A stretch of 64,000 nucleotides of DNA from contig OZ244824.1 in the NCBI GenBank assembly GCA_965220375.1, forward strand, positions 776,406 to 840,405, read 5' to 3'. Origin of the DNA: Dehalococcoidia bacterium (GTDB lineage Bacteria; Chloroflexota; Dehalococcoidia; Lucifugimonadales; JAGWBF01). The notes under the pieces were generated by a model. The model saw only the letters and a list, made by a program, of their open reading frames with translations. It was not told the DNA's origin and did no database searches. This document shows, one piece after another, positions 30,825 to 32,355 of this stretch (position 1 is the first letter of the stretch; every line of letters begins with the position of its first letter). The translations under genes and the position numbers were made by a program.

Positions 30825-30996
30825 GCGCCCTAAGCCTACCCACCATCAGGGCCACCTTCGTCCCTGGCCCATTCCCACAGGAGCCTTTGGGCAGCCCCCA
30901 GACAGGGCACAAAGCCGGCGATGGGATGGGCAATGTTCTAGGGACAGCTATGGCTGCTCGTTCCCCTTCGATTTCCCTCAGCAACTGTCTTTAAAG

Positions 30997-31944
30997 TCAA
31001 GAGTTGTGAAGGGCAGGGTCCCAATGGCGATTATGTTTGACCATGGCGTTGAGGATGGTGAGAAGCTTGCGCATACAGGCGGTAAGGGCCACTTTCTTGG
31101 GTTTGCCAGCCTCGCAGAGGTGTTGATAGAAGCTTTGCAGGGCTGGGTTGAATCTGGTGGCCACCAAGGTTGCCATGTACAGGGCAGCTCTCACCTTGCC
31201 ACGGCCACCCCATACCTGGCGTTTCCCACGCAGGGCGCCACTGTCCCGGTTGAAGGGCGCTACACCCACCAGGGCGGCGATCTCGCCACGGCTCAAGGCC
31301 CCCAGTTCAGGCAGGTCGGACAAGAGGGTCATGGAGAGAACAGGCCCCACCCCGGGGGCGCTTCGGAGCAGCTGGTCTTTGTCCTTCCACATAGGGGAGG
31401 AGCGGATGAATTCTCCCAAGTCCCGGTCCAGCTCTTCCAGGTTCTCTTCCAACCACAGGATGTGCTCCTGTACTTTGGGTCGGATACGCCGGGGGGCGGT
31501 TCTCAACCGGTTTTTCTCTGCGGTGATCATATCCACCAGTTGGCGTCTCCGGGCCACCAGGGCCATCAGCTCCTTAGATTGGGCATCGGGCAGGGGCCTG
31601 GAAGCAGGGCGCATTGCCTGGGCAAAATGGGCCAGAGCGTGGGCGTCCAAGGAATCGGTCTTGGCCAGTTTCCCGGCAGCCCGGGCGAAGTCCCGCACCT
31701 GTCTGGGGTTGACTACCGCTACATCCAATTGGGATGCGACCAGTTCTCCCACCAGGGTCATTTCCATTCCCCCGGTAGCTTCCAGCACTACCAGTTGGGG
31801 CGCCAGTTCCCCCAGACGATGCACCAAATCGCTGACGCCCTGGGAATTATAGGGGGCCTGCCATGCTTCACCGGTAGGACGCACCGCCACATCCAAGCGG
31901 TCCTTGGAGACATCGATGCCAACGAACAACGAAGCTTCCTTCAT
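30997..31944 (-). CDS. IS110-family (DEDD / RuvC-like + Tnp domain) transposase-recombinase
   Basis: N-terminal [20 protein letters not shown] and KTDSLDA. C-terminal [21 protein letters not shown] is typical of IS110/IS116/IS902 transposases. RBS GGGAGG. Confidence 0.9.
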
Positions 31945-32230
31945 TCATCTACCTCCCTTCAAGATACTCTCCCCAACTCTGGCCCATCCTTGCCTAATTC
32001 GGGCTCAACTGCCCAGTCAACTGTTCGGGCTCCGAGAGGGACTGGACGTGACGACCCTGCTGAGGGACGGCCTTCAAAGCCTAGGACGAAGCGGTCTGTC
32101 ACGTCCCTCTTTAAGATACAAGGACGAACGGACAACCCAAACCCCACGTATACAGATAGCCGACCCCCCGGAATACGGACAGGACAGGCCCTTCTACTCT
32201 GCTCAGAACCCGCCATTCGACTCTGTTCAG
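31945..32230 (-). ncRNA. candidate IS110 bridge (seek) RNA region in the 5-prime non-coding arm
   Basis: Contains target-like TTGTCCGTTCGTCCT (rc of 32121-32135), target-complementary TCCCTCAG (within rc of 32060-32070), two copies of the element-end motif CAGTTG (rc of 32014-32024 and 32004-32012) and an 8-bp stem between 32062-32069 and 32102-32109. Exact RNA ends are unknown. Confidence 0.45.
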
Positions 32231-32355
32231 GGCGAACGGACAGCCCAGGCCCTTCGGCTAGGCTCAGGACAGGCCCCAGGTTACGCAAAGGTCTCCTATC
32301 GAGAGGGGGGAAGCATATCCATCCTGGCCCTATCCCTGGAAGAGGGCTGGCTGGG

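Follow-up and report, generated by a model that had tools for sequence, protein, structure and literature searches.

Insertion sequences of the IS110 family that target REP elements, and the bridge RNAs that guide them, were described in 2024. In E. coli IS621, the left target guide of the bridge RNA base-pairs with the target's bottom strand and the right one with the top strand, the core being part of each guide (PMC11208160). A handshake guide has also been described for IS621 (PMC11208158), and a promoter that is assembled at the circle junction has been described for IS110 elements (PMC11208160). We analysed a 64,000-nucleotide stretch of DNA (the window) from the genome of an uncultured Dehalococcoidia bacterium, which is a single contig of 2.61 Mb with 59.5% G+C and is 94.55% complete. 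The window contains an element of this already known kind. The element is IS621-like, and it is very probably an IS110-group element whose insertion at the CT core of a REP-like repeat is guided by a bridge RNA.

The recombinase gene of this element (30997-31944, minus strand) is intact and encodes a protein of 315 aa. Residues 8-150 match PF01548 (RuvC-like DEDD; 1.9e-24), residues 191-274 match PF02371 (C-terminal Tnp; 3e-16), and the protein scored 217.8 bits against NCBIfam NF033542, 'IS110 family RNA-guided transposase', which has a cut-off of 140. These matches confirmed the family assignment made in an earlier note on this DNA. The acidic residues D11, E55, D97 and D100 lie within the motifs GIDVSK, LEATG and KTDSLDA, and S235 in the motif NRDSG aligns with the serine of ISCro4; the counterparts of these five residues in IS621 are D11, E60, D102, D105 and S241. 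The protein matched both ISCro4 (9t56; 1.4e-41) and IS621 (8wt6; 2.2e-41) over its whole length. All five copies of the element in the genome have full-length recombinase frames with 97.8-100% identity, and orthologous elements on genome contigs, nearly all of them from Dehalococcoidia assemblies, encode recombinases with 63-88% protein identity. The genome also possesses two more IS110-family recombinase genes (C1:96934-97845 and C1:1118110-1119038, the latter in two separate frames), which have only 58-60% protein identity to the window recombinase.

The extent of the element is defined by its copies. A search of the genome using 30982-32230, the stretch that had been proposed as the element, identified four further full copies with 98-99% identity, which matched only up to query position 1150-1156. 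Alignment of the copies together with their flanks showed that homology among all five ends at 32120-32122, with identity spanning from ...ccctcAG|caactgtc... to ...ttaagatacaAG|g(g/a)cgaa(c/t)gg, outside which the sequences are unrelated. The five copies align over exactly positions 1-1139 (98.1-100% identity), and the window element is therefore 30982-32120 on the minus strand, 1139 bp between the cores, with one CT core on each side. These core dinucleotides, AG on the plus strand and CT on the recombinase strand, adjoin the right end at 30980-30981 and the left end at 32121-32122. On the recombinase strand the junctions read CT|TGTATC...ACAGTTG|CT in every copy, and ...ACAGTTG-CT-GAG... 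was present at the right end in all five genomic copies and in orthologous copies. The CT core proposed earlier at both junctions was thus borne out by copies and orthologues alike. CT was present on both sides of all five genomic copies, with no target duplication past the 2-bp core. The same termini, again with CT on both sides, were present in about 30 orthologous copies, 1120-1179 bp long, from other Dehalococcoidia genomes. The same two terminal nucleotides are common to the five full copies, three remnants and these approximately 30 orthologous copies. No inverted pair connects the two ends of the window element, in agreement with the earlier report that terminal inverted repeats were absent.

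The three remnants in this genome each begin at element nucleotide 1, are preceded by CCGTTCnnn-CT, and keep only the left end of the element. They are 481 bp (C1:1335436-1335916), approximately 40-56 bp (about 1028568-1028621) and 29 bp (728089-728117) in length. In the remnant at 1028568, clear identity is lost directly after the guide-coding TTCGTCCT. Self-targeting, with the remnant ending at the guide-coding CT, was considered for this remnant and rejected, as the downstream sequence is neither a donor nor a target half.

When the immediate flanks are joined, a repeat unit is regained at four of the five genomic copies. In the window, the element interrupts repeat unit 1 after its left arm and loop (tcgttccccttcgatttccctc; 30958-30979, plus strand), and the right arm of this unit, gacgaacgg (consensus ggcgaacgg), follows at 32123-32131 (plus strand). 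Excision of 1141 bp, with 30981 joined to 32123, restores the repeat apart from a single G-to-A change at 32124, a variant that was also present at four unoccupied units. With this corrected excision, the window itself suffices to reconstruct the empty site, as had been claimed. Intact units fold into a stem of approximately 10 bp with a 12-nt loop (z = -4.1 for the copy at 36185), and the plus-strand core AG supplies the first two paired bases on the 3' side of the stem. Insertion is therefore at the loop/stem junction, and the earlier placement of the element inside a hairpin holds. The repeat is a short, abundant, intergenic imperfect palindrome, with 58 units at four or fewer mismatches to the consensus in the 2.61-Mb genome. 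We refer to it as 'REP-like' because no Y1 (RAYT) transposase gene was found: PF01797 gave no match in this single-contig, 94.55%-complete genome, in which controls did match. Exact unoccupied sites of the form CCCTCAGG[AG]CGAA[CT]GG numbered 29, of which 25 have G and four have A at the variable purine. The A variant was present at two of five occupied sites and four of 29 free sites, and this enrichment at occupied sites was not significant (Fisher p = 0.21).

The element's two non-coding ends are very different in length. The right end is 15 bp (30982-30996, minus strand) and terminates in ACAGTTG, the left-donor sequence matched by a donor guide. The left end is 176 nt (31945-32120, minus strand), lies upstream of the gene, and is the predicted bridge RNA gene. 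Alignment of 16 distinct left ends from orthologues gave a consensus fold in which two stem-loops each contain a large internal loop. Only the comparative fold was informative; a single-sequence fold of the left end was no better than shuffles (z = -0.01). When the two strands were compared, 566 of 590 cells were canonical on the recombinase strand (96%) against 511 on the opposite strand (87%), with 65 G.U against 10 A.C. This favours the recombinase strand, and the RNA would therefore be sense to the gene.

The target consensus around the core on the recombinase strand is …TTCG[T/C]C-CT-GAGGGA…, and one internal loop of the bridge RNA is predicted to pair with both halves of this repeat target. 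The left target guide, CUUCGUCCU (32083-32091, minus strand), has the same sense as the flank TTCGTC plus CT. The right target guide, UCCCUCAG, is the complement of CT plus GAGGGA and, together with an adjoining CA dinucleotide, occupies 32058-32067 (minus strand). This loop is arranged like that of IS621. In the window copy, the left target guide matches at eight of nine positions and the right target guide at all eight. At three of the five sites, the base at the position of a U in the left target guide is C, giving a U.G pair.

Across orthologous elements, the target guides change together with the sites at which the elements are located. The right flanks GAGGG, GAGCT, GAGCC, GAGGT and GAGCG are accompanied by the guides CCCUC, AGCUC, GGCUC, ACCUC and CGCUC respectively, and the left flanks TCATT and TCACC by UCAUU and UCACC. 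Among 13 distinct loop variants, the observed score for the left guide and flank was 96 against 86.5 when shuffled (p = 0.00035), and that for the right guide and flank was 95 against 81.2, a value reached in none of 20,000 shuffles (p < 0.00005); since the variants are related, both p values overstate their independence. It could be argued that the ends are as described here but that the recombinase picks its site mainly through the shape or sequence of the hairpin, in which case shared ancestry would account for the complementarity of the left end. A target hairpin has been reported as a second requirement for ISPpu10 (bioRxiv 10.64898/2026.03.19.712850), and all lineages in our data use the same repeat superfamily. 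However, we consider this explanation highly improbable. The guide positions change with the variable bases of the target loop in the 13 variants, and RNA guidance has been shown experimentally for the relatives that match at E ~1e-41. In addition, the copy at genome position 298945 has only CCCTCAG and GGCGAACGG of the repeat at its site, and yet the guide-matched 7 + 9 nt are present there without the left arm of the hairpin. Guidance by the bridge RNA is the reading that we prefer.

The other internal loop of the bridge RNA would pair with the joined ends of the element (…ACAGTTG-CT-TGTATC…). The left donor guide, ACAGUUG(AC) (32016-32024, minus strand), has the same sense as the right-end terminus ACAGTTG but does not match the CT core, having AC instead. 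The right donor guide, GGCAAG followed by a GA dinucleotide (31987-31994, minus strand), pairs with CT plus TGT of the left end with one G.T. The donor guides ACAGUUG and GCAAG and the ends of the element were invariant in the 16 orthologues, and are therefore consistent with each other without covariation. In short, the target guides covary with their own flanks, whereas the donor guides match but are invariant. The CA after the right target guide pairs with TG, the last two donor bases, which extends the guide to a 10-nt perfect match to the insertion junction at 30974-30983. The right donor guide is followed by GA, which pairs with TC, the final two bases of the target in the window copy. 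Both dinucleotides fit the handshake rule of IS621 (PMC11208158). The ends and cores of the element, the matches of its guides to target and donor, and the covariation of its target guides are all shown by these sequences.

The two ends also contain the halves of a candidate promoter. A -35-like TTGACT overlaps the stop codon of the recombinase gene (30995-31000, minus strand), and a -10-like TATCTT (32113-32118, minus strand) lies inside TGTATCTT, the terminus that is invariant in the orthologue alignment. When the ends are joined via CT, these give TTGACT, 17 nt, TATCTT, a promoter that would form only across the junction of an excised circle. In orthologues, TTGAC[AT] is located at a fixed distance from the right end, though their upstream sequence has diverged. 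By analogy with IS621, the element would excise as a circle, and the circle junction would act as a promoter, with its -35 from the right end and its -10 from the left end, driving bridge RNA and recombinase. The RNA-bound DEDD/Ser recombinase would then act at the CT core, recombining a free repeat unit with the junction of the circle. We infer transcription, circle formation and catalysis of the window element from this analogy.

The earlier note was right in its general reading: the element belongs to the IS110 family, interrupts a REP-like hairpin, has a CT core and lacks inverted repeats. The sequence features that it listed are also all present in the window. Positions 30959-30981 are indeed identical to a 33-nt family A repeat over 23 nt from its second base onwards, ggcgaacgg is present at 32231-32239, and the tail ggttacgcaa(a/g)ggtctcc follows both the 11533 copy and 32280. 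The family A copies at 11533-11565 and 36185-36217 are intact as described, while that at 36290-36322 has one mismatch; no matches were expected from shuffles. The distal boundary at 32230 and the length of 1249 bp, however, were not borne out, as homology among the copies stops at 32120-32122. The other copies have different termini from those proposed at this boundary only, and the boundary at 30982 stands. Positions 32210-32239 (plus strand) are a second, degenerate REP-like unit outside the element (local alignment score 34, where 500 shuffles gave no more than 28.5), and the supposed final 110 bp of the element consist of this unit together with a 78-bp spacer. The second unit accounts for the distal ggcgaacgg, for the second TCAG and for the likeness of the last 16 nt to the left flank, which had been taken as a feature of the element. 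TCAG is present at 30978-30981 and at 32227-32230 but is not a duplicated junction, the true junctions being AG at 30980-30981 and 32121-32122. A perfect repeat does result in silico when 30982-32230 is deleted, but the arms joined in this way belong to two different repeat units.

That the element might nevertheless be 30982-32230, a variant with a longer left end inserted in one repeat unit whose right arm is at 32231, is the least credible explanation: this deletion leaves a right arm without mismatch where the corrected excision leaves one G-to-A difference, but 32121-32230 is in no other copy, 32121-32131 is the same core and repeat arm as in every other copy, 32210-32239 forms a separate repeat unit, the terminus TGTATCTT that is invariant in 16 orthologues is located at 32113-32120, and the gacgaacgg variant is found at four free units and another occupied site and is matched perfectly by the left target guide. 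The annotated end of the element is corrected accordingly to 32120. Excision in silico at a single locus can be misled by tandem repeat units. Elsewhere in the window, the units at 36185-36217 and 36290-36322 are in direct orientation, 105 bp apart and each followed by aggggtcttcagggcgaa, a composite layout like that of units 1 and 2.

Two orthologous copies, L034 and L041, from two Dehalococcoidia assemblies, were the only ones in which two positions of the right target guide do not fit the copy's own flank. In both cases the guide of a co-resident lineage does fit the site (L037/L052 and L035). L036, a copy located at its cognate site, is 99.9% identical to L034 and does not differ from it in the left end. 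This suggests either guidance in trans by the RNA of another element or off-target insertion at a half-match.

The left end also resembles a known RNA family on its other strand. Rfam sX15 (RF02234) matched over its full length to 31957-32120 (plus strand) of the window and to all six left ends in the genome, with scores of 48.8-49.8 bits that do not reach the gathering threshold of 55. The match was always on the strand opposite the recombinase, and hence antisense to the bridge RNA. sX15 is a Xanthomonas sRNA with no assigned function, encoded on plasmid pXCV183 with a complementary partner, asX7, that was verified by Northern blotting, and it has ten Stenotrophomonas homologues (PMC3300014). 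The sX15 locus of pXCV183 shares the donor-guide motif GCCCGAACAGTTG with the window left end. The pXCV183 sequence NC_007507 contains no intact IS110 gene beside sX15, and a 98-aa ORF located there had no Pfam match; the link between sX15 and IS110 therefore rests on the covariance-model match and the shared GCCCGAACAGTTG. Among the papers searched, none mentions both 'sX15' and 'IS110'. sX15 and asX7 resemble opposite strands of an IS110 left end. If the left end is indeed also read in antisense, the orphan Rfam family sX15 and asX7 of Xanthomonas would both be transcribed from an IS110 bridge-RNA locus, sX15 in antisense and asX7 in sense orientation. Two further readings are put forward only tentatively and regarded as rather unlikely: that co-resident IS110 lineages sharing donor ends are guided by each other's bridge RNAs, and that the left end is also read antisense as an sX15-like RNA.

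The element is located between convergent genes. In four genomes of the same genus (L014-L017), the same two genes are approximately 58 bp apart, with 83-84% identity of the flanking genes. The window has 1.5 kb of repeats and element where these genomes have the ~58 bp, which indicates that the repeat cluster and the element are additions in the window lineage. A precise empty site was not found in these four genomes, in which the whole repeat cluster is absent at the locus, and nothing was obtained from metagenome contigs in two exact-anchor scans, one with the left and one with the right unique flank. Close copies of the window element were absent from the same-genus genomes searched and present in other Dehalococcoidia assemblies. 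The ~58-bp stretch of L014-L017 contains a CCCTCAGGGC/GACCCTCAGG palindrome which resembles the core of the repeat target.

Among known systems, the window element is most like IS621 (E. coli) and ISCro4 (PMC11208160, PMC11208158; PDB 8wt6, 9t56). It shares with them a two-domain DEDD and Ser recombinase, a left-end bridge RNA upstream of the gene with one loop for the target and one for the donor, a CT core, handshake dinucleotides, a predicted circle-junction promoter and REP targeting. One non-Watson-Crick position against the commonest natural target is tolerated, as at position 4 of IS621. The termini of the window element also resemble those of IS621, a likeness that was not used as evidence here. 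The window element differs from IS621 and ISCro4 in being distant in sequence and shorter (1139 bp, with a 315-aa recombinase, a 176-nt left end and a 15-bp right end), in its uncultured Dehalococcoidia (Chloroflexota) host, in its left donor guide, which mismatches the core, and in being known from sequence alone. A distant blastn search of the element against E. coli genomes gave only weak DNA matches in the C-terminal domain, with 14-20% coverage.

ISPpu9 and ISPpu10 of Pseudomonas putida are similar to the window element in their site-specific insertion into many identical intergenic hairpin repeats. The target-hairpin requirement reported for ISPpu10, however, is not evident here, where one of five sites is without the left arm. 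Elements of the IS1111 group with a 3' seekRNA (ISPa11, ISEc11; PMC11187229) are alike in recombinase superfamily and in RNA-guided targeting of repeats, but have the guide RNA downstream of the gene and subterminal inverted repeats, whereas the window element has its long non-coding end upstream and no terminal inverted repeat. The element matters little as a discovery. It is a compact natural system from Dehalococcoidia, with 1139 bp, a 315-aa recombinase and a predicted RNA of approximately 150 nt, in which all four guides, both handshake dinucleotides and the putative junction promoter can be read from the sequence, and in which about a dozen natural reprogrammings of the target loop follow the variants of one repeat superfamily.
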